This document shows, in pieces, positions 1,617 to 57,519 of a stretch of 64,000 nt of DNA. Source of the DNA: a virus. The stretch lies in the IMG/VR virus record IMGVR_UViG_3300009503_000018, positions 1-64,000 of that record. One strand, given 5' to 3'. A model generated the notes under the pieces. It was not told where the DNA came from, did not search any database, and saw only the letters and a list, made by a program, of their open reading frames with translations. The translations under genes and the position numbers were made by a program. Positions within the stretch are counted from its first letter, which is position 1; each line of letters begins with the position of its first letter.

Positions 1617-4600
1617 CTATTTGCCCTCTACAAATATATGCGTGTTCGTGTCATCCGTAGACAAAATCGCACGAATATCACAAGCAATTTCTTCGGGAAT
1701 ATTCTGCAAATCAGCCGTTTTGCGCATTATATCCCGCACGACCGATGCGGGTTGAGACAAACCGCCCGCTGATCCAGGCGCACCAGCCCCTTGACCAACC
1801 TCTTCTCCTGGCGGTGTCTTGGGCGCCGGCTTGATCTCCCCAGGTCCCGGTCCTAGCCCTAATCCAAGGGGCAAACCTAACCCCCCACCACCAGGACCTT
1901 TTCCACCACCCAGGGATGACATTAACAATTGATTTTTTGCAATCGTCGCCGCATCTTGCCCTAACGTGGCCATTTCCGCGTCGTAATCCAAACCAGCGCC
2001 CTGGACCACACTCCGAGGCGAAATCCATCCTTTCTGCGCCAATTCAGACCAGAAACGGAGAATCGCTTCATCTTGCCGCACATCAAGGCGCTTTTCAAAT
2101 TGTAAATGCGGATACAACAAATGTTTACCTTTTTGCACACGGGATTTTGCCGTTGCTGCAACCTTCGACATCGCAATATACCGACGGCTTTTTGCCATAT
2201 TGACTTCTTCAATCAATGGCTGAATTTTCAGAAATTCATATGCTTGTTTTTCCGGATCTTGAATAGCACGAATTTCTCGCATGCGATCCTTGAGAAACAT
2301 CGTCTGCTTTTCCAACACAGGATCGCGAGAATCAGGCAGATCGGGTTCACTCTTTTTTGGCTTTCGGTAAAACCCGTTGAGTTCTGCCATGACCGCAAAG
2401 ACTTTTTTATAAATCCAATCCGATACAAACATTTCACGCAGCGTGCGATACCGCATCATCAATACTTGCAATCCAGCATTCGCGCTATTGTACGTGCCGA
2501 CGTTTTCGGCCAGGAAAGAATGCGTACCTTCTACCGTAATATCAATTACGGTTTCATTATTTTCTATTGGTTCAATTTTTTCTATAGGGAGATACACATA
2601 CTTTTCATCAACCCACGCCTGTTGACGAGAATGCGGAATAGGCCACTCAACACCCCATACCATTTTCGCCAAATCACGAGCAAATTTTCCATAAATATTA
2701 ATTTGATGCAAATCCTGCCGTTCATATCCGTCACGACGCACAACCCCTTTTTGGGTTGTGCGAGAACACGCGTATCCTAATTGCGCAAGCAAAAGCTCGA
2801 CTTGATAGGCGAGTTGTTCACTCGTCGTGCGATATCCAATATAGCGCTGTACCCATTTCTTATTCTTGTACGGCGTTTTTTCGAGTAACGACCCATCTCC
2901 ACGGAAAAGCCCTGTAATAAATTCTCTCTTATACTCTAATGGCCAATGCATGACCTCTTCTGATAATTGCTTGCGATGTGAGTATTGCCCGCCATGATAA
3001 CTAAATAAAAATCCTGAAGGGGCTCCGATGTAAACGCGCGTAACGTTCGGCTGATTTAGAGAATTACCAACAACTTTTGCCCCACTACATGCCAACCGTC
3101 TAGTAGCCGTCATACCAAGAGTTTCAGCCAAAGCGCACGCATCTTTTGCCCACGTGTCGTATTCAGCCGCACTAAAAGTTAGTTCACACCTTTTTCCCCC
3201 AATAATGCTACCTTCAGCCACATAATACCCGAGCAGGCGGGCAAATTCGATGGGTTGGCTTGGAGCAACTGCCTCGAACTCTCGTGGGACCATAAAGTAG
3301 TCACCAATGCGCAAATCTTTTGTCGGGAGTTTTTGATACGGCTCATAATTCGCTGGAAGTTTCTTCAACGATTGATGACGCCCAATGGTCCAGCGCGCAC
3401 CAGTATCCTTAAATGCGGGTTGTCTTTCCACTGTCACATGATGCTTAAGATGTTGGTACCAGGAGGTAAAAACACCCTGTATGGAACGTCCAGGGAAAAA
3501 CTCCTGGGCAAGTTGGTGCCGATTACGGCGTTCCAATAACCACGCGTCATGTAAAGATTTCGAACGAGGATGCCGACACATCAAACACTTTTTCGAAGCG
3601 TTGATCGTGTACGATGTAATACGAGATCTCACCTGTTTTCCACACGTTCGTGGCCATACCCATACTGGCCACCGATGTTTATCACTGGCGATAATGGTTT
3701 TATTCCCGGCCAAGCGAATTTTATACATTGGGTTGATAACCCCTTCATCCCACTTGTCCAAAACTTTCCTTGAATGACCGTCTTTGTCAATGATTTCGTC
3801 CCCAACTTTGATGTCACCCAACGGAACATAAGAACCATTTTTCTTCAGTATTTTCGCGGACTTACACAATGTGGCATACGTGGTTTCTCCGTGCAGGAAA
3901 GATTTATTAATTCCCAACGCAACCAATTTTGCCCGTTCAATCACATCCCATTCATTCGTGATTTTGAGCTGCTTACCTTCAATGCCATGATATTCTACTT
4001 GCAACCCATAATGATAGACAATCGCCGCCAATGGATCGACTTCAGATTCGGCCAAGACTTCAATAAATTCTTCCATGTTCTGCGGCGACGGAATCCATCC
4101 TTCTTTCGGATCGCCGAGCTTGAACACCCGCAGTGGCAACGCATGTCGTTGCGCCTGTTGAATCTGACCATTAAACACGGCGTCTTCATACATCAAAATG
4201 CGGAACAACCGTCCCATAATACTCGTTCCGCGAATATCGTATGGAAACGCCTTCCGTGCGATATGTGAAGCGTTAAGCGGGTCTAAGGGAATATTTTTTC
4301 CACCAGCAATGGACGCCAAAATATCCGAAGGGATCTTATTTCGAAGACGAACATATCGTGGATCTGTACTTTGCAAAATCCGCCGCAAATCTTGGGACGG
4401 ACGCAACGTCAAAATTGGATCGTCATCAATTAGCGGGGAATCAACAACTTCAACGTAATCAGGATTATGTAACGTAATATGCGTGAATATTCCTTCTTTA
4501 TCGTCCCAAAAACAAAAAGGAAAAATCTCCCCGATGATGAGATATTCACGTGTCATTTTGGGGAGCCAAGACAGGAGTTCTGTCTGATTCAGCATGTCTT

Positions 4601-5006
4601 CATAGGCATGCAAAATCGTCTGTGACTCATCACCAGGCTCATCCATAATGAGATATGCCCCAGACCACGGCATATCCCCATGCATGTCGATCGCTCCGCC
4701 GATAACCGGATCGACGTTGTAAAACAAACGCCAATATTGGTTGAGTTGAGCGAGTTGGACCGGAAGTTGTAACCGATCCGGAGAGGAGAATAACGGATGA
4801 TACGGACGCGCGGGTGCCCGTATCACCGAAGCACCGCCGGACCCAGCGAGTCCGGCGGTTGCCGTCCGACGAAAATTCGGGTGCGCTACACCCGTCCCTT
4901 GAACATCTGGTCCACCATAATGAAAAATGGATGGACCCGATCTATTAGCGCTCGCGGTTGCTGACGCGTTTTTCGAAGCAAACTTCTCTAAGTCTTCTCT
5001 CGCCAT
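1617..5006 (-). CDS. Phage portal protein interrupted by an intein
   Basis: Extein (about 667 aa) has large-phage portal-like blocks (YWRLFYNVDPVIGGAID, HIARKAFPYDIRGTSI, PLRVFKLGDP); reconstituted junction GETTYA/SANAGLQV. Confidence 0.72.
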   Translation of the reverse strand: MAREDLEKFASKNASATASANRSGPSIFHYGGPDVQGTGVAHPNFRRTATAGLAGSGGASVIRAPARPYHPLFSSPDRLQLPVQLAQLNQYWRLFYNVDPVIGGAIDMHGDMPWSGAYLIMDEPGDESQTILHAYEDMLNQTELLSWLPKMTREYLIIGEIFPFCFWDDKEGIFTHITLHNPDYVEVVDSPLIDDDPILTLRPSQDLRRILQSTDPRYVRLRNKIPSDILASIAGGKNIPLDPLNASHIARKAFPYDIRGTSIMGRLFRILMYEDAVFNGQIQQAQRHALPLRVFKLGDPKEGWIPSPQNMEEFIEVLAESEVDPLAAIVYHYGLQVEYHGIEGKQLKITNEWDVIERAKLVALGINKSFLHGETTYATLCKSAKILKKNGSYVPLGDIKVGDEIIDKDGHSRKVLDKWDEGVINPMYKIRLAGNKTIIASDKHRWPVWVWPRTCGKQVRSRITSYTINASKKCLMCRHPRSKSLHDAWLLERRNRHQLAQEFFPGRSIQGVFTSWYQHLKHHVTVERQPAFKDTGARWTIGRHQSLKKLPANYEPYQKLPTKDLRIGDYFMVPREFEAVAPSQPIEFARLLGYYVAEGSIIGGKRCELTFSAAEYDTWAKDACALAETLGMTATRRLACSGAKVVGNSLNQPNVTRVYIGAPSGFLFSYHGGQYSHRKQLSEEVMHWPLEYKREFITGLFRGDGSLLEKTPYKNKKWVQRYIGYRTTSEQLAYQVELLLAQLGYACSRTTQKGVVRRDGYERQDLHQINIYGKFARDLAKMVWGVEWPIPHSRQQAWVDEKYVYLPIEKIEPIENNETVIDITVEGTHSFLAENVGTYNSANAGLQVLMMRYRTLREMFVSDWIYKKVFAVMAELNGFYRKPKKSEPDLPDSRDPVLEKQTMFLKDRMREIRAIQDPEKQAYEFLKIQPLIEEVNMAKSRRYIAMSKVAATAKSRVQKGKHLLYPHLQFEKRLDVRQDEAILRFWSELAQKGWISPRSVVQGAGLDYDAEMATLGQDAATIAKNQLLMSSLGGGKGPGGGGLGLPLGLGLGPGPGEIKPAPKTPPGEEVGQGAGAPGSAGGLSQPASVVRDIMRKTADLQNIPEEIACDIRAILSTDDTNTHIFVEGK
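2487..3872 (-). mobile_element. Intein with LAGLIDADG homing endonuclease in portal (462 aa, aa 379-840)
   Basis: Block A TLCKSAKIL...GDEIIDKDG; LLGYYVAEG; FITGLFRGDG; C-terminal DITVEGTHSFLAENVGTYN followed by Ser+1. Confidence 0.9.
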
Positions 5007-5028: not shown

Positions 5029-5277
5029 CTACTTCGAAACAGCCTGCTTTGCCTGATCAACGAGTTCCCGTACACCGACACCAGCCAACCCCGCCGCAGC
5101 CCCCGTCGCCAAATCGCCACCCGCCGCTGCCGACAACACCGCCCCAGCGACCGTGGACAATACCGGCAAGAGGTATGACGGGACCTTACCCAACATCTTC
5201 TTTACCGCAGCCACAAGAAGGGGTGCGACAACTGCGAGAACCTTTGGATCAGCCAAAAGACTCATAAGTGCGCTCAT
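5029..5277 (-). CDS. Holin-like small membrane protein
   Basis: 82 aa, 2-3 hydrophobic segments, GAAAGLAGVG motif, basic C-terminus. Confidence 0.5.
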   Translation of the reverse strand: MSALMSLLADPKVLAVVAPLLVAAVKKMLGKVPSYLLPVLSTVAGAVLSAAAGGDLATGAAAGLAGVGVRELVDQAKQAVSK

Positions 5278-8161: not shown

Positions 8162-8380
8162 TTAATAATTACCGGGTCCCCCATATGTCCACAAGCCATA
8201 CCGTCGAAATCCTCCTCCCCGCATAGACACGCTTGGCACGGTATTACGAGCAGTATTTATCTTATGACAATGGGGGCACTCGATTCCTGCCTTTTCCGCT
8301 TCTTCCGCACCAGAAAATGATAAATGCAGCACATCAAAAGTTTCGCCGCAATCTTTACAGTCATATGCATATCTCGGCAT
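8162..8380 (-). CDS. FmdB-family zinc-ribbon protein
   Basis: MPRYAYDCKDCG...CPHC...SVSMRGGGF. Confidence 0.8.
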   Translation of the reverse strand: MPRYAYDCKDCGETFDVLHLSFSGAEEAEKAGIECPHCHKINTARNTVPSVSMRGGGFRRYGLWTYGGPGNY

Positions 8381-8382
8381 AA

Positions 8383-8703
8383 TTACCTCCGAGGGAAGTA
8401 CCGAGCGAGTTTTACCGCGAATGTTAAATCACCTTCGACTTTTAATTTCCCCAACATATATAACATTTGCATACTCTCTTTACCATTGACCATATCCAAA
8501 TAATCATCTTTGTTTATTGTTAATGTGCAATCTGGAGATGCACACTCCCCTGTCTCAATGCACAAAGTCCCATTTTGAATCTTCACAACCCATTTACTAT
8601 CCCCAATGATATTGAATTGATAAATCCCGTTTTCTCCTTGCGCTGCTGCCGCATCAAAAAATTGCGGGACATTCTTAAAAACGTCTTCTACCGTTTCGTA
8701 CAT
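8383..8703 (-). CDS. SCP2 (sterol carrier protein 2) lipid-binding domain protein
   Basis: IYQFNI...WVVKIQNG...PDCTLTI...MVNGKESMQMLYMLGKLKVEGD. Confidence 0.85.
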   Translation of the reverse strand: MYETVEDVFKNVPQFFDAAAAQGENGIYQFNIIGDSKWVVKIQNGTLCIETGECASPDCTLTINKDDYLDMVNGKESMQMLYMLGKLKVEGDLTFAVKLARYFPRR

Positions 8704-9209: not shown

Positions 9210-10154
9210 CTATGTTCGATTTTTTCTTTTTGGCTTCATAGGAGGATATCCCTTTTTGCGAAAATCTTGAGCAAGCGTAATTGCGCTTCGCACAAGGGCT
9301 TTCGCTTTCTTGTGTACTTCGATATCTTCAGAGAGCCGCTGTTTATCATACGCATAATCTTCATTGGGAACCGCCGAAAATCCGACATAATACGGATCAG
9401 GATGAAACATCAAAAAGTCGTCATTGCCATCGTACAGTTGTTTTGCGACGAGTTCAATATAAGAAATATCCATGTTATGGATACCTTTTTCAGGATTTTC
9501 TTGGTCTTTGGACGTAATAAAATAGGCACAGACTTTTCCAAACAATCGGGGGTCGTAGTGGACTTCGTGTTCGGTGGAAAGGCGAATCATTTTTTGTCGC
9601 CACGCCTGATCTTTGAGGGCGAATTCTTCTGGAGCCACGTAATATCCACCATCGAGACTAATACAGCGATCCAGCAATGCCTTAAGCCGCGTAGACATAG
9701 AAGACTGATTCACCCCTGTAGAAATCAACAAGACATCGGCTCGCAAAATCAACGGATACAATTGCTGAGCGCCCTCGTGAGGATAAGGAAAGCAATTACA
9801 CGGAAATCCACATAAGGCAGAACAGGTCGCTAAACAATTATTGCATGGCTCAATCGTATATTCATTTAAATGCACACGTTCGATATGAATCGGCTCATCG
9901 GAAGAAATCTCTTCTAGCCCTTTTTCAAGGAGCATCGTCGAATTAGAAATTTCCCGTGAGCAATTATTCACGCCACGACCAGACCCAAAAAGCGCCAACA
10001 CTTCAAGAGGGCGGTCTTTCTTTTTCCAATATTCGACCGCTTCCTGACACCGCCGGACATTGGTTTCGTGTCCTTTTCGATATTCGGAAAAATCAACGTC
10101 AGGCGCGTTCGATCCATACCGAATTTCTTGCCACTGTGTAAATGTCAATGCCAT
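9210..10154 (-). CDS. Flavodoxin-fold NAD(P)H-dependent FMN reductase / iron-sulfur flavoprotein
   Basis: LFGSGR...SNSTMLL, IEPCNNC...C...PCNC, ADVLLISTGV...MSTRLKALLDR. Confidence 0.8.
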   Translation of the reverse strand: MALTFTQWQEIRYGSNAPDVDFSEYRKGHETNVRRCQEAVEYWKKKDRPLEVLALFGSGRGVNNCSREISNSTMLLEKGLEEISSDEPIHIERVHLNEYTIEPCNNCLATCSALCGFPCNCFPYPHEGAQQLYPLILRADVLLISTGVNQSSMSTRLKALLDRCISLDGGYYVAPEEFALKDQAWRQKMIRLSTEHEVHYDPRLFGKVCAYFITSKDQENPEKGIHNMDISYIELVAKQLYDGNDDFLMFHPDPYYVGFSAVPNEDYAYDKQRLSEDIEVHKKAKALVRSAITLAQDFRKKGYPPMKPKRKNRT

Positions 10155-13100
10155 TATTTCTTTTTTCGCAGACGGATGTAGATATCCTCCGACCCATCTT
10201 TTGTTTTTTCGACAACGTCTGGTCGAAGCGGCAGGGTTTCCCCTTGTAATATGGGAGTTCCGGGTTCAAACTCTTCCTGTGTATTCAATTTCCATTTGCG
10301 AAAAAATTCAATTGGTGGTTCTTTTTCTTGATGCTTTGCTGCGGCCCGTTCAGATTCTTCCGGCGCGCCCGGAACGCCCGGCTCAGGAAGGAAATTTTCC
10401 CCTTCTAACATGCGGACTAATAAATCGAATAATTCTTTTGATGCACGCTTCCGTCGCATAAAAACAACATCCGGTTTTCCAAATTGGCTCACATCCCACT
10501 CCTTTGGTGCCATTTCTTCGCTAAACGGCACTCGCTTATATTCTACAAATCCTTTCGACGTATACAAATTCGTAAGGAATCCTTCAAATGCGTCTAATGT
10601 CTCAGCCCCTTGTGAAAGGGCATGCTCGACGGCAGCGGCACCGGCACCACGAATCGGGCTCGCATTGAATACCGAAACAAGATCATTTTCCGGCGTAATC
10701 GCGTACCCAGTCTGTTCATCGGTAGACAAATATGTTCGCATTTTTCGATAATCATCCAGGCTATATCCGCTGAGAAATCCTAAATATCTTTGCACTTTTG
10801 GCGAAGTTTTTGCTCGTTCAATTGCCGCATAAAATTGCTCGGCCGGGACTTGACGAAACACAACCTGCGCCGTTTTTATCTGTACACGAGAGTTTTGCTT
10901 TTGTAAAGATGGTGTACCGGGCGTATGATCAGGATCGTACCCAGGAGGTTCGTCGCCTTTCCCAAATCCACGACTTGGGGCATTCAAGAATAGATGCGTC
11001 AACAAACAGCCTCCAAAGCCATAGCCGTATTCCCCCCATCCCGCCTGCGTCGGATTTACATCCGCACCCCCGGCATTATCGGCAGATTGTTCATGAATAT
11101 TCGAATCAATCGAATCCCCAAACCCACTCCCAGACGGACCACCAGAATCCGCAGACTTTACCAATGGAGGAACATAAAATGTACACCCACGACACGCCTC
11201 GTGTGTTTGACCTGCCCAAAATGTCGAACAGTCTCCGCCGCTATCATCGGATTCTCCGTCAGCCGATTTTTTCGACAATGACTGAACATAAAAATAATCC
11301 GATACTGCCTTCCGCAGTCCTGGACCAAAGACCCTTCCGTATTTAAGAAATACGGCTTCTTTGTCTTCGCCATTTTGGATATCGTAAATGGCATTCGCCA
11401 GCGCTTTTGATTTTTTCGTAAACTCGTCAATACTCGCAATATAGCGCTTTTGAATAGAAGATCCGGGTACGATTCGTGTAACATCGGCCCAAACATACGA
11501 ACCAGCGATTTTATCCGCGTCGGTATCATGGACCAGGTAATACATGCTCCCATATTGATACAGAGGAACGGGAATAGATGCGGATGATGCACGAATCATT
11601 GGCTTGACTGGTACTCCAAGCACGCGCGATGTCGGAACCCATCGAAATCCTTCGTGGATTAAATCACCGTATAACCGATCCTCACGACTAATCGGGGCGT
11701 GCGCCAAATCCAATGCCGACATTCCCTCGTGAATTAACGAATCAAATTCTGATTTGTAACGATCCACATCGGCGCGGTATTCGTCTGTAAACGGCAACGC
11801 ATAAAGGGCATCAACCAAATCTCCGACCGGAACCGGTTCTCCACGCACGACTTTCGCGAGTGTCTCTAATGCCGATTTATATTCCTCTTTCGCAAATTCC
11901 GTTCCAGAATTCGCTATATACTCTTTCCACTTGTCTTTTGCCCGATGATATGCTTGACTATACAACTTTCCCAGATACCGTTTTCTCCACCAATCGTTGT
12001 ATCCTTGGACCAATGGGTGATCGCGGCGAGACTTGGCTTTGTCGCGCAAAAACACGACTAAGGAATCGTCCAGGTTTGGTTTGGTTTTCGTAAACCAATG
12101 TCCGAAATCGTGATTCCCGGCACTCACGACCCATTGCGTATACAGCGTTGGAGAAATCGTTGATGGATCAGCCGTTGAAAAGTCACCTAAATCAGCGAGG
12201 TCGATATGCGAACACCGCCCCAAATATTTTTTCCACGCTTGAATATCATCCAAATCAGCAAAGACATGAGGAAGTTCTTTTTCGACCCATTCTCTTGGCG
12301 GACTCAAATGATACTGATACGCGTCGAGAGAACCCACGTATTCACCAATAGATTTCGCATAATCAACAACACGCCGAGCGAAATCCGCAAACCGCTCACG
12401 CAGATCACGAGGCATTTCTAAGAGCAACGGCTGATGCTTTTCTTCTTCTCCCTTGTCTTTTTTGTCTTTTGGTATTGGAGAAACATCGACAGCAACTTTA
12501 CCCGACAATTGGCGTTGAGGTCCCGGCATCTGCACATCAAACGACACCGGTTCATGTGTGTCAAATACACCACTTTGTTCTGCGCTTTGCTTTCTTCGAC
12601 CAATCTCATACCATGCCCACGGATCAACTTGAAGCATACGCGAGACCATAGAATGCGTCGAATTTAAAATTCCATCAATGTATACAAGAGGAGAAGACCG
12701 ACCTTCGACGACATCTTTCCGCAAGAGCAACTCGTCAAGGCTTTGCAATTTCTGGGTAAGAAATTCGACTTGAGCCGGAGCAAGATATTTTTTGGCTTTC
12801 CCCGCAAATATCGCGACGGCTTGCGCAGCTTGTTCATAAGCTTGCAATGAAGATTTTCTCTCGGCATCTTGTATCGCGTCATGCGCCCGCCGCCATGCCG
12901 ACCACAAATCTGGTGGGACACGTTCTTGTTCCCATTCTTCCGTTTGCGGCGCAAGAAAAAATAATGGGTCATCGTCTTCTGCGGTTTTTGTGAAAACGGC
13001 ATAGGCTGTTGCGAGTGGACCCCGTTCGGGACGATAGATCGGCGGGACCCGTTTGCGGCGCCTCGTGTCATCGTCATTGACCGTTGGGCTAATAGGCTGG

Positions 13101-13750
13101 AGCGGAATCCCAATGCTATCGGATGGTCGAAATTCCAATTCTCCTCGTTGCATCGGCGCGGCATGGAGCCCAGATTCAGCACCAAATGGTTCCCCAGAAG
13201 CCAATGACCCCGAACCGCCACCCCATTCGTTTTTGATCGTGTCTCCAGGAAATTTATCTTTTGGGGGGTTCCTTTTAAACGGAGGAACAGCGGCCAATCG
13301 GTACAGTAAATCCCGGAGACGAGAAGCCAGTTTTCCTTGTGTCGGTTCCGCCATATCAGCAAATTCTCGCACCGTCATTGTTTGGAATTTTTTAATTATC
13401 TCTTCCACATCTTGCCAAGCCCGTTCTTTCCCTTTCCATGCCCGCTCTCGATGATAAAGCAGTGTTCCAACTTGTTCTATCCAACGCTCTTTTCCTGTTT
13501 GCAAAAATATTTCCACATCGGTTGCCCAATACTCGCCTCGCAGAGGATAAATAAAAATCCGGATACGTAATAATACGTACCACGGTTTTCCGTCAACGAT
13601 AATCGGAATGTCCCGGTCTTCCCAAAACATATCACCGCTATGACCACCGCTATGATATGGCTCTTGGGTAAGACTCGTGATTAACGGTGTTCCGCTTTCA
13701 GGACTATTTCTCAAGTATTCATATAGGGTTTGTGTAGTAAACTCGGGCAT
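10154..13750 (-). CDS. 1198-aa mosaic protein with C-terminal GNAT-like domain
   Basis: TGYAI...DLVSVFN...RGAGAAAVEHALSQGAETLDAFEGFLTNLYTSKGF...VPFSEEMAP.EW; other modules unrecognised. Confidence 0.75.
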   Translation of the reverse strand: MPEFTTQTLYEYLRNSPESGTPLITSLTQEPYHSGGHSGDMFWEDRDIPIIVDGKPWYVLLRIRIFIYPLRGEYWATDVEIFLQTGKERWIEQVGTLLYHRERAWKGKERAWQDVEEIIKKFQTMTVREFADMAEPTQGKLASRLRDLLYRLAAVPPFKRNPPKDKFPGDTIKNEWGGGSGSLASGEPFGAESGLHAAPMQRGELEFRPSDSIGIPLQPISPTVNDDDTRRRKRVPPIYRPERGPLATAYAVFTKTAEDDDPLFFLAPQTEEWEQERVPPDLWSAWRRAHDAIQDAERKSSLQAYEQAAQAVAIFAGKAKKYLAPAQVEFLTQKLQSLDELLLRKDVVEGRSSPLVYIDGILNSTHSMVSRMLQVDPWAWYEIGRRKQSAEQSGVFDTHEPVSFDVQMPGPQRQLSGKVAVDVSPIPKDKKDKGEEEKHQPLLLEMPRDLRERFADFARRVVDYAKSIGEYVGSLDAYQYHLSPPREWVEKELPHVFADLDDIQAWKKYLGRCSHIDLADLGDFSTADPSTISPTLYTQWVVSAGNHDFGHWFTKTKPNLDDSLVVFLRDKAKSRRDHPLVQGYNDWWRKRYLGKLYSQAYHRAKDKWKEYIANSGTEFAKEEYKSALETLAKVVRGEPVPVGDLVDALYALPFTDEYRADVDRYKSEFDSLIHEGMSALDLAHAPISREDRLYGDLIHEGFRWVPTSRVLGVPVKPMIRASSASIPVPLYQYGSMYYLVHDTDADKIAGSYVWADVTRIVPGSSIQKRYIASIDEFTKKSKALANAIYDIQNGEDKEAVFLKYGRVFGPGLRKAVSDYFYVQSLSKKSADGESDDSGGDCSTFWAGQTHEACRGCTFYVPPLVKSADSGGPSGSGFGDSIDSNIHEQSADNAGGADVNPTQAGWGEYGYGFGGCLLTHLFLNAPSRGFGKGDEPPGYDPDHTPGTPSLQKQNSRVQIKTAQVVFRQVPAEQFYAAIERAKTSPKVQRYLGFLSGYSLDDYRKMRTYLSTDEQTGYAITPENDLVSVFNASPIRGAGAAAVEHALSQGAETLDAFEGFLTNLYTSKGFVEYKRVPFSEEMAPKEWDVSQFGKPDVVFMRRKRASKELFDLLVRMLEGENFLPEPGVPGAPEESERAAAKHQEKEPPIEFFRKWKLNTQEEFEPGTPILQGETLPLRPDVVEKTKDGSEDIYIRLRKKK

Positions 13751-13752
13751 GG

Positions 13753-15084
13753 TTACGCCCTCATGGACTGCTCAAGACCACACCAGACACACATCGTCTG
13801 ATCGACGGGATCACGATTTGTAGCGGTTAATTTCCGCGTGCATACGGAACAGCCGACAGCGGACAAAGACACGGTTGAAGGATCATTTTCTGGTGACATA
13901 ATCCCTTCTTGTGGAATGCCACGATACCCAGTCCCGCTGGGGTTCGTATTTTGCCGTTCATACGACAACAAAAAATCTTCAGTATTATCAACTAAATCCG
14001 TTGGCGTTCCCGTGCCAGTCACATACATTGGCAATCCTGAAGCGATTTGCTCGCGAGCACGATCCGTGGACAACAAATGGGAGAGGACTTGATCCATTTG
14101 ATCAAAAAATTCTAACGCCTGTTGTGTCATGTCTCGCGTTCCGGCAGGAACCAATTCTAAGGCGACCCGTGTATCGCTTGGGTATAACACGTCCCGAATT
14201 TCATAATCGGGCATGCGATCAGCAAGAAATGCCCGCACGGTATTTGGATCCCTGGCAAATGCCCCCTCAATGAGCATGTATATCGTTCCATCGTGTCGTT
14301 TTTCTATGTCTTGGACGGTAAGACTGGCTTTTGTCCGCTTTTGCAAACCCACCATGTACGCGACCCCATTCTTACGCACGAAATCTCCCGTCAGGATAAA
14401 TATCCCTTCTGGGGAATCAATGCGACAAACCGACGCCGCCGACCGCATAAATTCGCATTCGATTTCCGCCATCCGTGGTACGGTCAATTCATCCGCCGCG
14501 TAACGCACAATTGCCATTTTTCTCCCGGAAGGAATGGGCGTCACATACAGCCGCTCACCCCATTGTGGCTGTGAATAACTCGCGCGGACAATCTCCCGCA
14601 ATTCCTCTTCCGTCAATCCAGCCAATTTTCGCAATTCCTCGTACACTTTCGTTGGTTGTGGTCGATTCCCTGGATTGACAATTTCACGTTTGAGTTCGAG
14701 CAGCAAATTCCGAATCCGCATGTGCGTCGTGCCTGACTGCGACATGTATTCCTGAAGTTTTGTTTTGAGCAGATCGCGACGATCACGGAGTTCTTTTACC
14801 GGTTTCCCTAACTCTGCTTCCACGTCACGGACCAACTGCTCTGCCTGTTCGATTGCCTTGCGCATGAACTCGGCCTTGCGTTCCTCTAAGGCACGAACGA
14901 TGTTTTCTAGTTCATAAAATTCACGCTTAAGCATCGCCAATTCCCGCTGAGTCAACACGCCCACGACAAGAAGAGAACCGTAGCGTCCTCGAAATGCCAA
15001 AATGTCTTGGCACGCCGCACATCGTTGACCAGTAGTCGGCACGAACAATTTTTCACAAGACACACAAAAACTTAGCGATTCCAT
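13753..15084 (-). CDS. Mosaic hypothetical protein (terminal Zn-ribbons, coiled coil)
   Basis: 443 aa; CxxC pairs at both termini. Confidence 0.7.
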   Translation of the reverse strand: MESLSFCVSCEKLFVPTTGQRCAACQDILAFRGRYGSLLVVGVLTQRELAMLKREFYELENIVRALEERKAEFMRKAIEQAEQLVRDVEAELGKPVKELRDRRDLLKTKLQEYMSQSGTTHMRIRNLLLELKREIVNPGNRPQPTKVYEELRKLAGLTEEELREIVRASYSQPQWGERLYVTPIPSGRKMAIVRYAADELTVPRMAEIECEFMRSAASVCRIDSPEGIFILTGDFVRKNGVAYMVGLQKRTKASLTVQDIEKRHDGTIYMLIEGAFARDPNTVRAFLADRMPDYEIRDVLYPSDTRVALELVPAGTRDMTQQALEFFDQMDQVLSHLLSTDRAREQIASGLPMYVTGTGTPTDLVDNTEDFLLSYERQNTNPSGTGYRGIPQEGIMSPENDPSTVSLSAVGCSVCTRKLTATNRDPVDQTMCVWCGLEQSMRA

Positions 15085-15974
15085 GTGTTATCCCGCTTCG
15101 CGACGCGAATTTTTGGAATCAATGTAAACTCTCCCTGTTTCACCGCATTGCTAAATTTGGACAACGCAATCCGTTCTCGGCCCCCATTCAACCATTGGAC
15201 CGATACGAATTTTCTCCCAACAAAGCGGACCAGTCCAACGCCTTTTTTAGCAACTAGCTTTTGTTCTAAGACCGGTGTTTCTTCCTGCACACGACTTTTA
15301 CTTTCTCCTTCTTTCGATTCATCAGAAGCTTCGGTCCGTGATTTCAACACATCACGATAGCTCGCCGCTTCTTTTGCGTAATACTCTTCGACCAGTTGCC
15401 GCGCCGCTTGATGATCATATCCCAAGCTGCGAAGTCGGTGATAATGCATTACTGCGCGGTATTTGAGTCCTGAAGATTCTCCAACTTCCGCAAGGTCGCT
15501 CTTTTCACGAATTTCTTCTTCACACGACTCTAGCTCTTTTTGTTGCTTGCGAATTTCATCATAGACTTTTTCCTGTTCAGAACTCCAAACCACGACTTGG
15601 TCTTTTCCTGTGTTTTTACCAATAACAAGAGCTTTATGGGCTTCTTCTGGTTTTTTACCGATACCTACCGTCGCCGTATGATTCGTATGCTTTTTGTAAA
15701 TCGCACGAACCGCATCACCAATTTCTTTGGGATCTCCGTCAATAGTAAAAAAGAGATTGTCGCCCCCGTAAAAAATGACGGTTCCACCATGCTCAGTCAC
15801 ATATTCTTCGACTTCAGCAAATGCGCTTTTGATTTGCTTTTCAAATTTTTGGGACTTCGCAAGGTCGTTTTCTTCCAGCGCTTCTTCGACGGTTTTTCCC
15901 ATATCGTCGCCATCCATGCCGACGAACCATTCTCCAGGAGCGGTCCCTACGTTCATTGTGATGTCTTCTGCCAT
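15072..15974 (-). CDS. Protein with N-terminal minimal CRISPR polymerase (mCpol, Cas10/GGDEF-like palm) domain
   Basis: FVGMDGDDMG...GGTVIFYGGDNL...TATVGIG...AHKALVIGKNTGKDQV matches the mCpol pattern (xDGDDxG, GGD, SxGIG, AxxALxxAKxxGK). Confidence 0.8.
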   Translation of the reverse strand: MAEDITMNVGTAPGEWFVGMDGDDMGKTVEEALEENDLAKSQKFEKQIKSAFAEVEEYVTEHGGTVIFYGGDNLFFTIDGDPKEIGDAVRAIYKKHTNHTATVGIGKKPEEAHKALVIGKNTGKDQVVVWSSEQEKVYDEIRKQQKELESCEEEIREKSDLAEVGESSGLKYRAVMHYHRLRSLGYDHQAARQLVEEYYAKEAASYRDVLKSRTEASDESKEGESKSRVQEETPVLEQKLVAKKGVGLVRFVGRKFVSVQWLNGGRERIALSKFSNAVKQGEFTLIPKIRVAKRDNTWNR

Positions 15975-15988
15975 ATCACTTACCTAAT

Positions 15989-16222
15989 TTATCCAATATC
16001 TTCTGGCGCGCGTTCTGTAACAACAAAGTCGTGCATGCCCAGCCAAATTTCACGCCGATTAATAGCGCCCCAAACGTCCCGATCAAAATATATGTGAAAG
16101 TGGTTAACCGTCCCCGACGGATTATCGCCAACAGCAATGATGCTTCCTTTCTCTCCGCAAAATCTATGAGGCGGAGAAACTTCGATTTTATCTCCAACTC
16201 GCGGATAATATTTGGCCGCCAC
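15989..16222 (-). CDS. Small SH3/KOW-like protein
   Basis: YPRVGDKIEV...GEKGSIIAV. Confidence 0.6.
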   Translation of the reverse strand: MAAKYYPRVGDKIEVSPPHRFCGEKGSIIAVGDNPSGTVNHFHIYFDRDVWGAINRREIWLGMHDFVVTERAPEDIG

Positions 16223-16237
16223 GTATTTTCCGCTCCA

Positions 16238-16615
16238 TTAGTTGGTGTCAGTCGCTGCATAAAGCGTAATCCCTCGGACTTCAGATGACGAAGGATTCGA
16301 CGCAAGAATACCGGAAATTGTCGCGAACATAACAACCGTATTACTCACGGGAATACTTACCGGAGAGCCATTAAATTTTACATTAATCGCTCCATCCGTG
16401 AGCAGGACAATAACTTTTGCCGTATTCACATTTCCCATATTCAGAGGAACATCAACGGCATTAGCCGGCAAATTAAACTTCATTGCTCCACTGGCTTCGG
16501 CTGCGTTCATCAACGTGTCCGCAATATTATCTATTATAGTTACGGTCGCTCCGCCAGTTGGTGTCTCGTTGAGTTTTCCGGCGACAAAATCAACGCGTCG
16601 TAGTGGCTGTGGCAT
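16238..16615 (-). CDS. Putative virion structural protein
   Basis: 125 aa, beta-rich, A/S/T/N-rich. Confidence 0.55.
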   Translation of the reverse strand: MPQPLRRVDFVAGKLNETPTGGATVTIIDNIADTLMNAAEASGAMKFNLPANAVDVPLNMGNVNTAKVIVLLTDGAINVKFNGSPVSIPVSNTVVMFATISGILASNPSSSEVRGITLYAATDTN

Positions 16616-17855: not shown

Positions 17856-18194
17856 TTATTTCCAAAAAATTTCAAATCGTTCGAGCAAATCCCCAGCAAT
17901 TTCTTGTGGTGTTCTACGCTTCCGCGACATGTCCAACATGAATTTATGCAAATCATGCGTTTCTACGGGGCGACGCGATAATTGGCGAATATACCCTTCA
18001 CCAATCAGGCGGTCTAAGACAGGATCTGGCAATGGGCCTCGACCGGCAGTTCCCAAACCGCACTTTGAACACACAATGCTATGAAAATTATCTTCACCAA
18101 TCACGACCATAACGCCGTCGCAGCGCGTAGGAGCAGTTGCCGGGATTGCCCAACACGGCCAATTGGTCTCCACGCGAATAAACATTACTTCCAC
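17856..18194 (-). CDS. Hypothetical Zn-binding protein
   Basis: 112 aa; C...C...CSKCG. Confidence 0.55.
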   Translation of the reverse strand: MEVMFIRVETNWPCWAIPATAPTRCDGVMVVIGEDNFHSIVCSKCGLGTAGRGPLPDPVLDRLIGEGYIRQLSRRPVETHDLHKFMLDMSRKRRTPQEIAGDLLERFEIFWK

Positions 18195-18529
18195 CCAAAC
18201 AGCGTTTTAATCACATAATTAAATACCACAACCCCGACTCCACCCCCCAAAATCCCAGCCAGCGCCGACACTAGAGCGACGGTTGTTTTTACCGACAACG
18301 AAAAGGATTCTAGATTTGAAACCCGCGTATCCAACGCCTCACGAATTTTCTCTTGTTTTTCTTCGAACCGTTGCAAAAGTTCTTGGAGGGTGTTTTCGAC
18401 ACGAACCAAAGCAGCCTGCTGATCTTTTTGGCTCTCGCACAAATAGTTTAGGCGGGTGTCAACTTCTCCGCGCCATCGACTCCAATCATGTCCATTTGGC
18501 AGTGTTGACTTTGCCATAGTTTTTGCCAT
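18185..18529 (-). CDS. Coiled-coil protein with single C-terminal TM helix
   Basis: VALVSALAGILGGGVGVVVF. Confidence 0.65.
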   Translation of the reverse strand: MAKTMAKSTLPNGHDWSRWRGEVDTRLNYLCESQKDQQAALVRVENTLQELLQRFEEKQEKIREALDTRVSNLESFSLSVKTTVALVSALAGILGGGVGVVVFNYVIKTLFGWK

Positions 18530-22488: not shown

Positions 22489-25065
22489 TTATTGCATCAC
22501 TTCAGTCAATGTATCAGCAAGCTGACGCGCAATTCCCCGCCCGCGCCAATGCAGTGGAATTTCCACAACCCGCAATTTCAGTGGATTACATTCTACGCTC
22601 AATCGGGCCCGAGCAATCATATGAAATGCAGTCACGATATTCCCTGTTTTTATCATCACAACAGGACTCCAACACGCCTTGAGTTTACTCTCGATGTGTT
22701 TTCTTCTCCACCGAACAGATTCCATTTCTTTTCTTCGTAATTCTTTTCTTTGTTCTGGTGTCAAATGAGAAATATCCGTTCCATACAAGCTCGGATAGCC
22801 AGTCCGGCGAGACCACATCCGATAATCACGCAGCATTTGCTTGGTCTCATCGGTGAACGCGGGTTCCATCCAATACATCGCATGTTCGCTTCCCTTCGTA
22901 TCCAAAGCATCATCAATCCATCTTGAGGGATCTCCGGGCCAACTTTTCCCGCTAAAAATATTCCCGGTATTGTGTTGCAACGTATTGATTTGATCTATCA
23001 GGATCCCCAAATACCGCCACGGCATGTTTCGACGCAACGCTTCTTGAAGTTGCAACGCGCGAATAGCAGCCAAAGCCCATCGCGGACCTCCCCAATTCGA
23101 AGCCGACAAATCGGTATTAAACGCCCGAGCCAAATCAGCTAAGTCCGCGCTTTGTAAGTCATCTATATCATCTCGATATACTTTTTTATTCAAAATTTTT
23201 TCCATTTCTAGGATATTCGAAAATTCTTCGTTCCATTGTTCTTGCAATATTCCTTCTTCATCTTCTTCTTTTTCTTCTCGTTCGACTGTCTCTTCTGTTG
23301 GTCCTGTTGCGGCGAGGATTTCACCGGTTGTTCCGTTAATCATAATCAAGGTTCCGACATCGAGAGTCTTCCCATCTGGAAACTTAACTTGATTATCGTC
23401 TATGGTAAATCCGGCCCCTGTCACACACGGTTTTCCCATTTGCCGGGCCACGATCGCGGCATGCGCTGTAGGACCTCCATGCGCCGTCAGAAATCCCACA
23501 GCCGCATTCATCGCAGAAATATCTTCTGGCGTTGTCTCGGGCCGTACCAAAATTACTGGCCCTTCTTGTGCCATTTGAACCGCCATTTCGGCAGTTGTCG
23601 CAATACGCCCGGTCGCTGTCCCTGGAGAAGTCCCAATCCCTTTTGCAATTACTGCGCGATCAGCAAATTCTTTCACCCAATCTGGTGGAACGATGTTGGG
23701 GTATTTTTCAAAAAACTGTTCCAAATCGGGGTCAGTTTGCGTTTGCAACAAGACATTCTTATATCGTTTCCATGCCGCCGTGAGATCTGGTTGGATTTCT
23801 TTCCAAATCAACGCATCATATTCATCGGGGTTTTTCGTATTGTACAGTGGTTTCACACCAACGATTGTCAAAAATACATCATCAGCATCTGTACTTAAAA
23901 TATCCTCATAGCCTTTTAGGCGCTCAACCGCTTGAGCAATTTCCTGTTCATCTAATGCATTTATCAATCGCTTGAGTTGCACCAAATATTTGAATTTCTT
24001 AAGCTTCTCTTCGTCGAGTTGTTCGCGTAGGGTTTCACCAACTGGCGCCACCGTTGTAAGCACGGACTCAGGATGCGCAATCAATGCGCGTTCAAAAAGA
24101 CGCCAGGAAGACGGCTTATATGTGGAGCGAATCGTAGACCACGGCACCCATTGATTACGCTCGGGGTCGAACAAAGAAAAATCAAACCATTTTGAAGTAT
24201 CAATAGTAATAGGAGGCGGTTCCGACCGCGCTGGGAAAAGTCGCTGTCGTGGCTGTGCAATAATACGCCAACCAGATTTTGTGACTTCTGGCTGTTCTTG
24301 CTGTTCTTGCTGTTCTTGTCTTGGCGTAATGTGTGGTAATATTAATTGGACTTGACCTGTCGTATCGAGAAATGCTCGTCCACATAACGGGCACCGATAC
24401 GGTTCTCCAGGCAATTCTACAGGAGTAATACTCTCATAATCCACTTCAACTTCATCTGGCTGCGGATAAGGTTGGAATTGGTGTTGATGATGTTCTTCCC
24501 AAAAATCCCCAGCGTAAGGCGCCTCTTCGTCGTCCGGTAACATATCCGTTTCAGCGGAGCACCCCAAATATGTTACCCCTGTCTTATCAGTAAAATTCAC
24601 GCATTTGTATGTTTGGTCCCCTACGAGAGCCCACATGTGCGGTTTTTTGTCTCCACACTCCACACAACGGTGTCTTAACGATGTGTCCTCATACTCATGC
24701 AAATATTTGTCTCCGCAGGAATCACAAGTGTGGTATAACGTGCCTTCGGCAGTAAAGTCATGTTCGTCTGTTTCGCCGCAAACCTCACAGGAATGATAAC
24801 CTTTATTATCCGTCGACCATTCATGCACGTGTTCTTCTTCTTCTTCTTCATTCTTTATAGCTGTAAGAGTGTGGTCAGCTTCTGTGCGGACGAAGTCTTC
24901 AAGCTGGGAAGCATATTCTCGTGCGAGGGGGAGCACAATTTCTTCCGCATATCTATCCCATTTAGGAAATGCTCGATAAAATGCGGGCGGAAGTTGCATG
25001 ACCGCATAAAAATTGTACAGTTCGTCTATAGCGACAGCGCGACGAATGAATCGGGGTCGTGTCAT
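22489..25065 (-). CDS. Mosaic protein with PEP-utilising enzyme mobile (phospho-His swivel) domain and H..CxxCG repeats
   Basis: AKGIGTSPGTATG...ILVRPETTPEDISAM...GFLTAHGGPTAHAAIVARQMGKPCVTG...INGTTGEI (about 23320-23650). Confidence 0.85.
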   Translation of the reverse strand: MTRPRFIRRAVAIDELYNFYAVMQLPPAFYRAFPKWDRYAEEIVLPLAREYASQLEDFVRTEADHTLTAIKNEEEEEEHVHEWSTDNKGYHSCEVCGETDEHDFTAEGTLYHTCDSCGDKYLHEYEDTSLRHRCVECGDKKPHMWALVGDQTYKCVNFTDKTGVTYLGCSAETDMLPDDEEAPYAGDFWEEHHQHQFQPYPQPDEVEVDYESITPVELPGEPYRCPLCGRAFLDTTGQVQLILPHITPRQEQQEQQEQPEVTKSGWRIIAQPRQRLFPARSEPPPITIDTSKWFDFSLFDPERNQWVPWSTIRSTYKPSSWRLFERALIAHPESVLTTVAPVGETLREQLDEEKLKKFKYLVQLKRLINALDEQEIAQAVERLKGYEDILSTDADDVFLTIVGVKPLYNTKNPDEYDALIWKEIQPDLTAAWKRYKNVLLQTQTDPDLEQFFEKYPNIVPPDWVKEFADRAVIAKGIGTSPGTATGRIATTAEMAVQMAQEGPVILVRPETTPEDISAMNAAVGFLTAHGGPTAHAAIVARQMGKPCVTGAGFTIDDNQVKFPDGKTLDVGTLIMINGTTGEILAATGPTEETVEREEKEEDEEGILQEQWNEEFSNILEMEKILNKKVYRDDIDDLQSADLADLARAFNTDLSASNWGGPRWALAAIRALQLQEALRRNMPWRYLGILIDQINTLQHNTGNIFSGKSWPGDPSRWIDDALDTKGSEHAMYWMEPAFTDETKQMLRDYRMWSRRTGYPSLYGTDISHLTPEQRKELRRKEMESVRWRRKHIESKLKACWSPVVMIKTGNIVTAFHMIARARLSVECNPLKLRVVEIPLHWRGRGIARQLADTLTEVMQ

Positions 25066-25068
25066 AAC

Positions 25069-26250
25069 TTAGAAGAACTTGTGGAATTCCTTTTTACTCA
25101 AAATCCGCTTGGGTTTTCTACGGAACAAACTCGGAAAAGGAAAATGCCATTTCGGTAGCCGCTCCATCGTAGTACGGGGTTCAACTTTTGGCAATCCGAC
25201 ATATTCTCGAATCGCTTCCTCCATCACTCCTTCCGGCATAGCAACAGGTCTCTTTTCATTAATCTCGTTGATGATTTGGCTGTAAACTTTTTCTTTTTTT
25301 CTTTTTGTTAAATTCAAATCACGAAGTTGGTTCTGTAACAAATACGCTGCGATTACAGAAGGCGAACGGTTCATTCCCTCTCGACAGTGAACATAAATAT
25401 TCTTGCCTTCGCTCGTCCAACGTTCGAGGGTTTCCACCGCACGGCGAATATCCTGGAGACGACGAGCATTTCCTTCGGGCGATTCATCGAATTCATCGAT
25501 TGGGATATGTACATATTCTACATCTGGAGGTGGTGAATACGTATTTTGACTCACATTCAAAATGGCATCAAACGGTTTCCCCGTCTGACGATCACGCATT
25601 AACCACGCATTGATAATATCTCCAAGCCAGATATTTGGCGTAATTTGATCGGCTTTAATATCCTTTCTGTCCATATATTTTGTCAATAAAAATTGGACTA
25701 TACGGGACATATGAGGGCCGTGCTGCACTTTTGGCGGTGCGGAGAACCCTTGCGGTACAGAAAACAGTTCCGGTTGTGATGGCCGGGACAAATCACGTTC
25801 AACATATCCGCATGTGTTACAAAAATAATAAGGCTCTTTACCAATTTCGACCATCCCTATACCCGAACCACAATGTGGACATTTCCCAAAACTAATATCC
25901 TTTGAAGGATCAGGATCTTGATATTCGGGAAATTCTTCAAATTCAAAATCTTGATATTCTTCGGGGATTTCTTCGTGATATTGTTTCCAATGCTCCGATT
26001 GGTACAATTGTTCATTGGGGCTCAAAAGAACCGTTTGTCCACATTCTGGACACTGGATATTCCATGCTGAATATTTAACAATACTCTTTTTCGATAATGC
26101 TGTGGATTTACGATGTTTTTTCCAATGTTCCGATTGGCGAAGATTCTCGTGCGCCTGGAGAACGACCATCTGCCCGCACTCAGGGCATTGAACGATATCC
26201 CAACCCCATGCTGAAAATTTAACAATACTCTTTTTCGATAAAATACGCAT
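25069..26250 (-). CDS. Dual-specificity (PTP-like) phosphatase with N-terminal Zn ribbons
   Basis: QITPNIWLG, AILNV, VHCREGMNRSPSVIAAYL (CX5R motif). Confidence 0.88.
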   Translation of the reverse strand: MRILSKKSIVKFSAWGWDIVQCPECGQMVVLQAHENLRQSEHWKKHRKSTALSKKSIVKYSAWNIQCPECGQTVLLSPNEQLYQSEHWKQYHEEIPEEYQDFEFEEFPEYQDPDPSKDISFGKCPHCGSGIGMVEIGKEPYYFCNTCGYVERDLSRPSQPELFSVPQGFSAPPKVQHGPHMSRIVQFLLTKYMDRKDIKADQITPNIWLGDIINAWLMRDRQTGKPFDAILNVSQNTYSPPPDVEYVHIPIDEFDESPEGNARRLQDIRRAVETLERWTSEGKNIYVHCREGMNRSPSVIAAYLLQNQLRDLNLTKRKKEKVYSQIINEINEKRPVAMPEGVMEEAIREYVGLPKVEPRTTMERLPKWHFPFPSLFRRKPKRILSKKEFHKFF

Positions 26251-29695: not shown

Positions 29696-29831
29696 GCTCA
29701 TGTGTCGTAAATGCCGACATTTTGTGTCGTATTAGGCGATACGCCGCACGTCGTTGCTAATTCATGATTTAGTACGGCTCGTCGTCTTACGTTCAACGCG
29801 TGCGCTTTATGCATCGCCAACTATTTTCAAA

Positions 29832-29903
29832 TTGGGGCAGTGGGAGTCGAACCTCACATCGAGCGCTTATAAGGCGCTTGCTCTGCCGTTGAGCTACACC
29901 CCA
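29832..29903 (-). tRNA. tRNA-Ile (anticodon UAU)
   Basis: Cloverleaf: D stem GCTC/GAGC, anticodon arm AGCGC-CTTATAA-GCGCT, GGTTCGACTCC; one bulge in the T stem; CCA not encoded. Confidence 0.82.
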
Positions 29904-29992
29904 ATAGAGTGAAGTACATTGCTGCGTGAATGAACACACAGGAGGAGCACCCTATTTTGAGCTAGAGACTACGCAATGTACTCCACTCCTTC

Positions 29993-55034: not shown

Positions 55035-55120
55035 TGAAAGTTACATATTAGCTGACACAAAATAGTATAATCTGAATCATAACTAATTGTACACAAAATT
55101 GCACATAAAATGTTGGTTAG

Positions 55121-55205
55121 TAGCGGCGGAGGGACTCGAACCCCCACGGATATTAATTCCGCCGGTTTTTGAGACCGGAGCGTCTGCCAATTCCGCCACG
55201 CCGCC
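55121..55205 (-). tRNA. tRNA-Leu (anticodon CAA)
   Basis: GGCGGAATTGGCAGACG D arm, CCGGT-CTCAAAA-ACCGG, long variable arm, GGTTCGAGTCC; CCA not encoded. Confidence 0.92.
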
Positions 55206-57234: not shown

Positions 57235-57519
57235 AATGCCAACGTTTGCTACACCCACTACTAGGATAGTGGAAAATTACTCAAGACGCAGGTGATTGAT
57301 CTTCGTGCATGTTACCGCGCGATTGCTATAGCACGTTAGCGTGACGTAGTGGGGGCGGTGGGAATCGAACCCACGTTTAGCCGGATTAAAAGTCCGGAGC
57401 AATGCCAACGTTTGCTACACCCCCACTACTAGTATATTGGAAAATTACTCGAAGTCAAGACGCAGGCGATTGATCTTCGTGCATGTTACCGCGCGATTGC
57501 TATAGCACGTTAGCATGAC
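57235..57519. repeat. Duplication of tRNA-Lys promoter and 5' arm (57235-57345 vs 57401-57519)
   Basis: 111 vs 119 nt; copy next to ligase lacks 6 nt in the promoter and 2 nt in the acceptor strand. Confidence 0.92.
57350..57424 (-). tRNA. tRNA-Lys (anticodon UUU)
   Basis: GGGGGTG/CGCCCCC acceptor, GCAA/TTGC D stem, CCGGA-CTTTTAA-TCCGG, GGTTCGATTCC; CCA not encoded. Confidence 0.9.

Follow-up and report, generated by a model that had tools for sequence, protein, structure and literature searches.

The window analysed here, i.e. the first 64 kb (positions 1 to 64,000) of the 139,527-bp IMG/VR virus record IMGVR_UViG_3300009503_000018 (estimated by CheckV to be ~77% complete), encodes on its minus strand (15072..15974) a protein of 300 amino acids (aa), whose N-terminal "head" (aa 15–134) is a genuine mCpol palm domain, related to the synthase OptS of the bacterial Panoptes system, and whose C-terminal "tail" (aa 176–300) is a conserved module that also occurs on its own. 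This form of mCpol, phage-borne, effector-less, fused to a tail module and with a natural counterpart that lacks the head, is new. Its best reading, in which we place about even confidence, is that of an accessory nucleotide-signal synthase that tampers with the signalling of the host. To our knowledge, every characterised phage tactic against cyclic-nucleotide immunity works by destroying the signal or by sequestering it. Panoptes came to light as the bacterial reply to tactics of this kind (PMC12657218), and an effector-less phage copy of its synthase is a concrete candidate for a signal-writing tactic. If the product proves ordinary or the enzyme inactive, the finding shrinks to another accessory domain in a modular phage protein.

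Identification of the mCpol domain

The profile search identified the Pfam family mCpol (PF18182) in aa 15–134 (15573..15932, minus strand), with 75.4 bits, an E-value of 5.9e-21 and coverage of profile positions 1–113 of 114; given the family cut-off of 26.4 bits, this match is far above chance. The whole 139,527-bp record contains a single mCpol (77.7 bits in the search of the entire record). The Pfam model of the Cas10/Cmr2 palm-2 domain also matches the protein (E 5.3e-10), and the PADLOC models that match it do so solely via their mCpol or Cas10 palm portions. Among the solved structures, the sequence search returned only the Panoptes synthases (9mnr/9pd0 and 9nwn). The AlphaFold2 model, built from the 31-sequence family alignment (mean predicted local distance difference test score, pLDDT, 78.6; 81–96 for residues 11–150), exhibits the minimal Cas10-like palm fold of the RRM type. 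Its comparison with the PDB by Foldseek ranked six OptS/mCpol chains at the top (target-normalised TM-scores 0.81–0.86; 9pd0, 9mnr, 9nwn), followed by GGDEF and Cas10 palms, while a second, independent aligner superimposed it on OptS (9mnr_A) with a Z-score of 16.9 and a root-mean-square deviation of 1.8 Å over 117 of 119 residues, the best GGDEF protein scoring 3.3 Z lower. An earlier reading made from the letters and their translations (the sequence-only reading) had called the domain mCpol and would have given up this assignment for a better match to another fold; with OptS/mCpol as the best structural match, the assignment is upheld. The motifs on which it had relied, GMDGDDMG (19–26), YGGDN (69–73), TVGIG (102–106) and GKNTGK (119–124), are all found in the 300-aa open reading frame (ORF).

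The closest characterised homologs, OptS of the Panoptes systems (KpOptS and VnOptS; 9mnr, 9pd0 and 9nwn; type II mCpol), share with the phage protein the ~120-residue minimal palm fold and the two catalytic aspartates, but are bacterial and located in defence islands, while the protein described here is encoded by a phage, continues beyond the palm into a helical stalk and a phage tail module, and is only ~19–20% identical to them. The phage GGDEF diguanylate cyclases (Bacillus phage G gp350, phage SP-15; found in BFVD) are related palm cyclases, also from large phages and with no obvious effectors; however, they belong to a separate family, larger and with a motif of its own, and our model matches OptS better than GGDEF (Z 16.9 versus at most 13.6). 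Besides several phage GGDEF proteins, BFVD holds a single uncharacterised protein, from an uncultured Caudovirales phage, whose alignment extends across the entire model.

The gene, defined by its ORF and translation, is preceded by an AGG-type ribosome-binding site a few bases 5' of the ATG, and its 3' end overlaps the start of the next gene, encoding 443 aa, by 13 nucleotides (nt). An exhaustive search yielded 719 homologous proteins at E<=1e-3; the full-length homologs (coverage 93–100%, identity 49–97%) number 18, all of them metagenomic and encoded on contigs of up to 165 kb. Neither megablast with the region nor tblastn with the protein gave any match among 50,697 GenBank phage records, and no confirmed relative came up when IMG/VR and 185,579 representative prokaryote species genomes were scanned for patterns.

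Active site and predicted product

Catalysis by KpOptS requires Asp6 and Asp57 (PMC12657218). A gapless HMMER alignment equates them with D21 (codon 15912-15914) and D72 (codon 15759-15761) of the phage protein, which are invariant in 19 members of the mCpol-plus-tail family, and in about 25 homologs overall, and are retained in 148 of 168 relatives. Judged by these intact residues, the phage mCpol is apparently catalytically competent. Where the Cas10 GGDD motif has its second acidic residue, the phage protein has Asn (GGDN), a variant present in 48 of the 168 relatives and common among the nearest ones. The altered motif could be taken to mean that the domain is a catalytically dead nucleotide binder, retained as a sponge or a decoy, but OptS lacks the second Asp too (it reads Q-A-A-D-G, with Gly in that position), the two metal-binding aspartates essential in OptS are exactly the invariant ones, and the palm core of the family is strongly conserved (mean column identity 63%); we regard a dead binder as very improbable.

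Adenine selection in OptS has been attributed to S30 and N34 (PMC12657218). Where KpOptS has these base-selecting residues, the phage mCpol has E45 and K49. Position 45 is occupied by Ser in 115 of the 168 relatives and by Glu in essentially the whole phage subfamily. Since Glu stands at the adenine-selecting position, the product need not equal the 2',3'-c-di-AMP of type I Panoptes; it may differ from it, and may be a new compound.

An optional head on a conserved tail module

In the AlphaFold2 model the palm is followed by a long helix (aa 132–158; 15501..15581, minus strand), a possible dimerisation stalk with the invariant residues Q144, Q145, L148, E149, C151 and E152. A linker predicted with low confidence (15450..15500, minus strand; pLDDT 55–62) comes next and carries the LKYRA motif, invariant within the mCpol-plus-tail family (L170, K171, Y172 and A174 in the family alignment). 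The conserved tail module (15075..15449, minus strand) is modelled as three helices (168–219), a disordered linker, a small five-stranded β domain (239–286) and a basic C-terminal end. Stand-alone tail-module proteins are represented by P0025, P0048, P0051, P0054 and P0082, and several short proteins match residues ~152–296 only; the homology to the stand-alone proteins starts at ~aa 176, directly after LKYRA and the low-confidence linker. LKYRA thus sits at the true boundary between the head and the tail module. The sequence-only reading had taken KYRA and AKEA for junctions shared with the surrounding proteins, which does not hold: each occurs once in the 181-ORF proteome, in the mCpol protein only. 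Likewise, hidden Markov models (HMMs) of the stalk and the tail detected no paralogue among the 181 ORFs (top match E 0.005, coiled-coil-like).

A naturally head-less variant was found in a related phage locus (L014), in which the 161-aa tail protein P0048 takes the exact place of the mCpol protein, with the ~126-aa and 97-aa genes on one side of it, the 590-aa zinc-ribbon gene on the other and the SCP2/zinc-ribbon pair downstream. A six-frame HMM search of this 16.5-kb locus detected the tail module and no mCpol, and the stalk helix is missing from this relative as well. Since the locus has the tail module and the same neighbours but no mCpol, the head is dispensable for the phage; since the flanking genes persist there, they track the tail module rather than mCpol; and since no gene co-varies with the presence of mCpol, the neighbourhood contains no hidden cognate partner. 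The tail module and its neighbours are the fixed part of the phage lineage, while the mCpol head is an accessory, swappable enzyme. That the head is optional is a new finding, and the head-less variants form with the head-bearing ones a natural plus/minus pair that permits comparison.

The fusion to a lineage-conserved module, within a co-directional array that runs to the portal gene, might speak for a role inside the phage: a timing or assembly signal, or a palm acting as a small nucleotidyltransferase on a phage substrate and tethered by the tail to an assembly component. Nor is the gene set apart from the array, the promoter-like and terminator-like sites around it being at the background level and no operon boundary being discernible. 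Yet a core assembly function would not be expected of a head that is dispensable in a close relative, and the relatives of the domain are embedded with enzymes typical of conflict (GGDEF, InPase, ligase, PrimPol; see below). We consider such an internal role improbable.

Attempts to name the tail module gave no usable match in the ESM Atlas and weak matches in the PDB profile and Pfam searches (RuvA_C/UBA-like or CW_7-like helices, E 0.005–0.7); the structure search with the whole model was dominated by the palm domain, so that the β domain of the tail was scarcely probed. The tail protein of L014 (8001-8486, plus strand) contains at its N-terminus a partial second copy of the β-domain motif (HMM positions 32–69 at residues 4–40), and in its N-terminal "...AMERL..." it is reminiscent of the extension that longer mCpol homologs have at the N-terminus.

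Search for an effector, a sponge or an eraser

Profiles of potential partners were compared with the whole 139.5-kb record at E<=1, and the orphan status of the phage mCpol holds for the families screened in this way. No match was found to the Cap15/2TM-β cyclic-dinucleotide receptor (PF18153, Cap15_CD_rec), to SAVED, to CARF-TM (PDLC01879, CARF3--CARF_TM), to the CARF domain of the APE2256 type (PF09651, Cas_APE2256) or to GGDEF; a cognate effector elsewhere in the genome, which would have counted against the sequence-only reading, was not found among these families. The claim that the neighbours encode neither a transmembrane (TM) nor a CARF effector proved correct too: the 77-aa and 443-aa proteins flanking mCpol show no TM helix and no match to CARF, effector or defence families. 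Among the sponges and erasers, the Acb2 type (PF13876), the Tad2-like family (PF11195), the 2H phosphoesterase (PF13563) and the ring nuclease of the AcrIII-1 type (PF08960) were looked for in the record and gave no match; the screen did not extend to Tad1, Acb1, Acb4 and Apyc1.

These results bear on the idea that the protein is a phage-borne defence or a means of superinfection exclusion, in which the mCpol signal would control an unrecognised phage effector (the 443-aa protein or the tail module) according to a Panoptes-like logic directed against rival phages. The coupling to the 443-aa gene by the 13-nt overlap and their constant adjacency are in its favour, and Iyer et al. name a response to rival elements as an alternative role of comparable domains (PMC5512222); on the other hand, the 443-aa gene, the tail module and the other neighbours are unchanged in the mCpol-less relative, so they are independent of the signal, a toxin restrained by this signal would be lethal there, and the searches brought up no sign of an effector, whether TM, CARF, SAVED, nuclease or other. 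We judge this explanation slightly less probable even than the phage-internal role.

The same searches bear on a device directed against Panoptes itself, in which the phage enzyme would make the repressing ligand of the host OptS/mCpol (2',3'-c-di-AMP or cA3), so that the OptE/CARF-TM toxin stays off during nucleotide depletion. The enzyme family and the fold are those of OptS, the record holds no effector for the phage mCpol, the nearest stand-alone relatives are cellular mCpols of defence islands, and a phage counter-move is expected by the authors who described Panoptes (PMC12657218). Yet an identical product is doubtful in view of the Ser30 to Glu and Asn34 to Lys replacements, and the record revealed no trigger gene of the Acb2, Tad2, 2H or ring-nuclease type. 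Such a device seems to us unlikely, to about the same degree as the internal role. The proposal of the sequence-only reading that a phage-made nucleotide serves counter-defence thus survives in its general form, interference with host signalling being still the best reading, while its specific form, the topping-up of the Panoptes signal, is weakened by the Glu in place of Ser30 and by the lack of a known sponge or phosphodiesterase in the record.

As to classification, a type I Panoptes system has an adjacent 2TM effector with a Cap15-type receptor and a type II system an adjacent CARF-TM effector; the ~77% complete record contains neither beside mCpol, and the neighbours have no PADLOC match. 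Panoptes is also located on bacterial chromosomes or in defence islands, whereas the gene described here belongs to a virus record and shows synteny on phage contigs. The protein is thus a member of the mCpol domain family, yet neither a Panoptes system nor itself a polyvalent protein of the kind discussed below.

Relatives of the domain

Outside the mCpol-plus-tail family, the closest mCpol domains (40–44% identity) are found within large multi-domain polyvalent proteins of phages. P0032 (1992 aa) combines an ATP-dependent DNA ligase, mCpol, GGDEF, LigD Prim-Pol, sigma-70 region 2 and LigD phosphoesterase, while mCpol is accompanied by a polyvalent-type InPase in P0039, by GGDEF in P0041 and by a PI3/4-kinase domain in P0052. 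The gene of P0032 lies on a 110-kb contig, a few genes past a capsid gene; that of P0027, on a contig of 82.7 kb, is surrounded by very large ORFs and has a Mu-type portal gene four genes further on. Both are thus 4–10 genes away from a portal or capsid gene. The mCpol-bearing proteins adjoin three unrelated types of head genes, and the presence of the nearest relatives in polyvalent proteins by the head genes of unrelated phages indicates a recurrent theme.

The polyvalent proteins described for phages and conjugative elements, which probably enter the cell together with the DNA, include GGDEF and RelA/SpoT domains, for which a disturbance of host nucleotide responses or a defence against rival elements was proposed (Iyer, Burroughs, Anand, de Souza, Aravind 2017, PMC5512222). 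The general idea of a phage-made nucleotide signal that disturbs the host was thereby anticipated for GGDEF; mCpol is not listed among their domains in that work. The protein described here differs from them in that it has one recognisable enzyme domain and a non-enzymatic tail instead of several such domains, nor did we find in it a processing peptidase domain or any sign of packaging. Our literature search revealed no paper that joins mCpol to polyvalent proteins, virions or jumbo phages, and the two Nature papers on Panoptes, the paper on type II Panoptes and a 2026 review do not mention a virus-encoded mCpol.

In the domain tree (FastTree, 162 domains, 121 columns), the polyvalent-type mCpols and the mCpol-plus-tail family form a single clade (support 0.985); the latter family is itself a clade (0.81), with five OptS-sized proteins as its sister group (0.87). 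The tree is short and moderately supported, and we therefore do not claim a direction of transfer. The sister group includes the cellular stand-alone mCpol encoded next to a type III CRISPR locus (P0083), which is OptS-sized and matches PF18182. Proteins of this type are bacterial, have candidate effector genes alongside and possess no tail module, in contrast to the phage protein. P0083 itself (125 aa; L018 6001-6378, plus strand, on a cellular contig) directly follows a type III-A Csm1–Csm5 cassette and is flanked by an unannotated 349-aa gene overlapping its start and by an SLFN/AlbA_2 gene; the arrangement may represent a CRISPR-attached guard of the Panoptes kind.

Possible function

By analogy with OptS, the mCpol domain would dimerise, perhaps with the aid of the stalk helix, and, during infection, would constitutively condense nucleoside triphosphates within the cell to a cyclic dinucleotide or oligonucleotide. 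The context, with no partner toxin to be regulated, suggests that the product would act on receptors of the host and not of the phage: it could saturate or antagonise immune sensors (CBASS, type III CRISPR or Panoptes-type), or falsely satisfy guard systems. Alternatively, the product might hijack physiological signalling by cyclic di-nucleoside monophosphates (c-di-NMP). Delivery of the protein with the virion is possible, as suggested by the gene position and the analogy with polyvalent proteins. A wider and distinctly more tentative idea, which we would still place above each of the alternatives weighed earlier, is that several large-phage lineages carry mCpol as cargo, delivered or made early, which writes an immune-type cyclic nucleotide and thereby jams, pre-empts or falsely satisfies sensors including Panoptes. 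That would be counter-defence in which a second messenger is written, and not erased or sequestered.

Several points weigh against a synthase that tampers with host signalling. The replacement of GGDD by GGDN may affect the predicted activity. With the record ~77% complete, a partner could reside in the missing quarter, and the tail module or the 443-aa neighbour, both with no known fold, could be an unrecognised receptor. The protein has one enzyme domain, as opposed to the several that define polyvalent proteins, and it is devoid of the LS[KR][KR] motif that is common in its gene block (see below), as is the 443-aa neighbour.

Gene neighbourhood

Synteny around the mCpol gene is conserved in 7 related contigs of up to 165 kb. 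The common gene order in the seven contexts starts with a large DSP-phosphatase/PEP-utiliser protein, several unknown genes, a ~125-aa and a 77–92-aa gene and mCpol, and continues with a 450–590-aa zinc-ribbon protein, at least one large variable protein (GNAT-like, methyltransferase, PcfJ), SCP2 and a small zinc ribbon; the window follows this order down to the SCP2 (8383-8703) and zinc-ribbon (8162-8380) pair. Immediately upstream of mCpol, the two conserved genes of 77 aa (15989-16222) and 125 aa (15989..16615 for the pair, minus strand) recur in every syntenic locus, also in the one that lacks mCpol, and match no known family. Downstream, the 443-aa gene (13753..15084, minus strand; synteny in 8 phage contigs) is translationally coupled to mCpol and invariably adjoins the tail-module gene. 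Its product has zinc ribbons at both termini, an extended helical region and an α/β domain at aa 190–315, and matches no Pfam, PHROG or PADLOC family; its model (pLDDT 64.7) gave nothing at E<=1e-3 in Foldseek and generic helical bundles only in VIA-align.

The enzymes of the block (DSP phosphatase, PEP-utiliser domain, GNAT-like, FMN reductase-like) are modular, and their modules are shuffled among relatives. The GNAT-like module (phrog_2563), which forms the C-terminal ~130 aa of the 1198-aa protein at 10154-13750 (minus strand), recurs in the linker of P0175 and P0176, two homologs of the 443-aa protein in related phages (alignment A3), while other homologs carry a different domain inserted at the same point. 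Such insertions show directly that modules are shuffled at linkers. That the surrounding proteins are modular, as had been supposed from the sequence, is therefore correct in so far as the GNAT-like module moves between proteins, though the KYRA and AKEA motifs cited for it are not common to them. Two separate genes at 22489-26250 (minus strand) encode the DSP-phosphatase, which has 393 aa and contains zinc ribbons, and the PEP-utiliser mobile-domain protein, which has 858 aa and is a "kinase" according to PHROG; in the relatives L002/L003 the two are fused into one protein of 1501–1803 aa.

In the block at 645-26250 we counted 12 copies of the motif LS[KR][KR], most of them LSKK, against an expectation of 0.68 +/- 0.80 (maximum 4 in 1000 shuffles); elsewhere in the proteome there are 4, with 2.8 expected. 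Its carriers are the proteins at 645, 8825, 10154, 16626, 17856, 18779, 21956 and 25069, and the motif could be a processing or targeting signal. Another member of the block, the 114-aa protein at 18185-18529 (minus strand), 2.2 kb upstream of mCpol, consists of a coiled coil and a single C-terminal TM helix, and its position is conserved in relatives. According to the hydropathy scan, which found few TM proteins, it is the TM protein nearest to mCpol, and it is not tied to the presence of mCpol.

The phage genome

The portal gene (1617..5006, minus strand; phrog_16240 portal, E 6.4e-80) lies in the window, while the head maturation protease, major head protein, tail sheath and baseplate wedge are encoded at 108–138 kb of the record and the primase-helicase, ribonucleotide reductase, helicase and DNA polymerase at 62–72 kb. 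The presence of these portal, head, sheath, baseplate and replication genes indicates that the mCpol gene is phage-encoded, and the record is that of a large phage of the myovirus type. The location of mCpol in a virion gene block, as claimed by the sequence-only reading, is borne out in part: the portal gene is found ~10 kb downstream on the same strand, but the genes in between carry no structural annotation, and the protease, head, sheath and baseplate genes are at the far end. The nearest relative of the major head protein among the GenBank phages is that of "Virus Rctr197k" (44% identity), followed by those of Erwinia and Xanthomonas jumbo phages, phiRSL1 and Bacillus phage G. Kinship to the Myxococcus phage Mx1 was considered and found no support, Mx1 being absent among the best 15 of the 317 records that match the major head protein.

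The portal protein (1129 aa) contains an intein with a LAGLIDADG homing-endonuclease domain at about aa 560–840. Minus-strand tRNA genes were found at 29831-29904, 55120-55205 and 57349-57424 (Ile-TAT, Leu-CAA, Lys-TTT). The gene that directly precedes the portal gene (5029-5277, minus strand) encodes 82 aa, including a single TM helix, and matches the A118-like family of holins (PF06946) above the cut-off, with E 4.4e-6; this is an odd site for a holin, and the gene is possibly a clue to the host.

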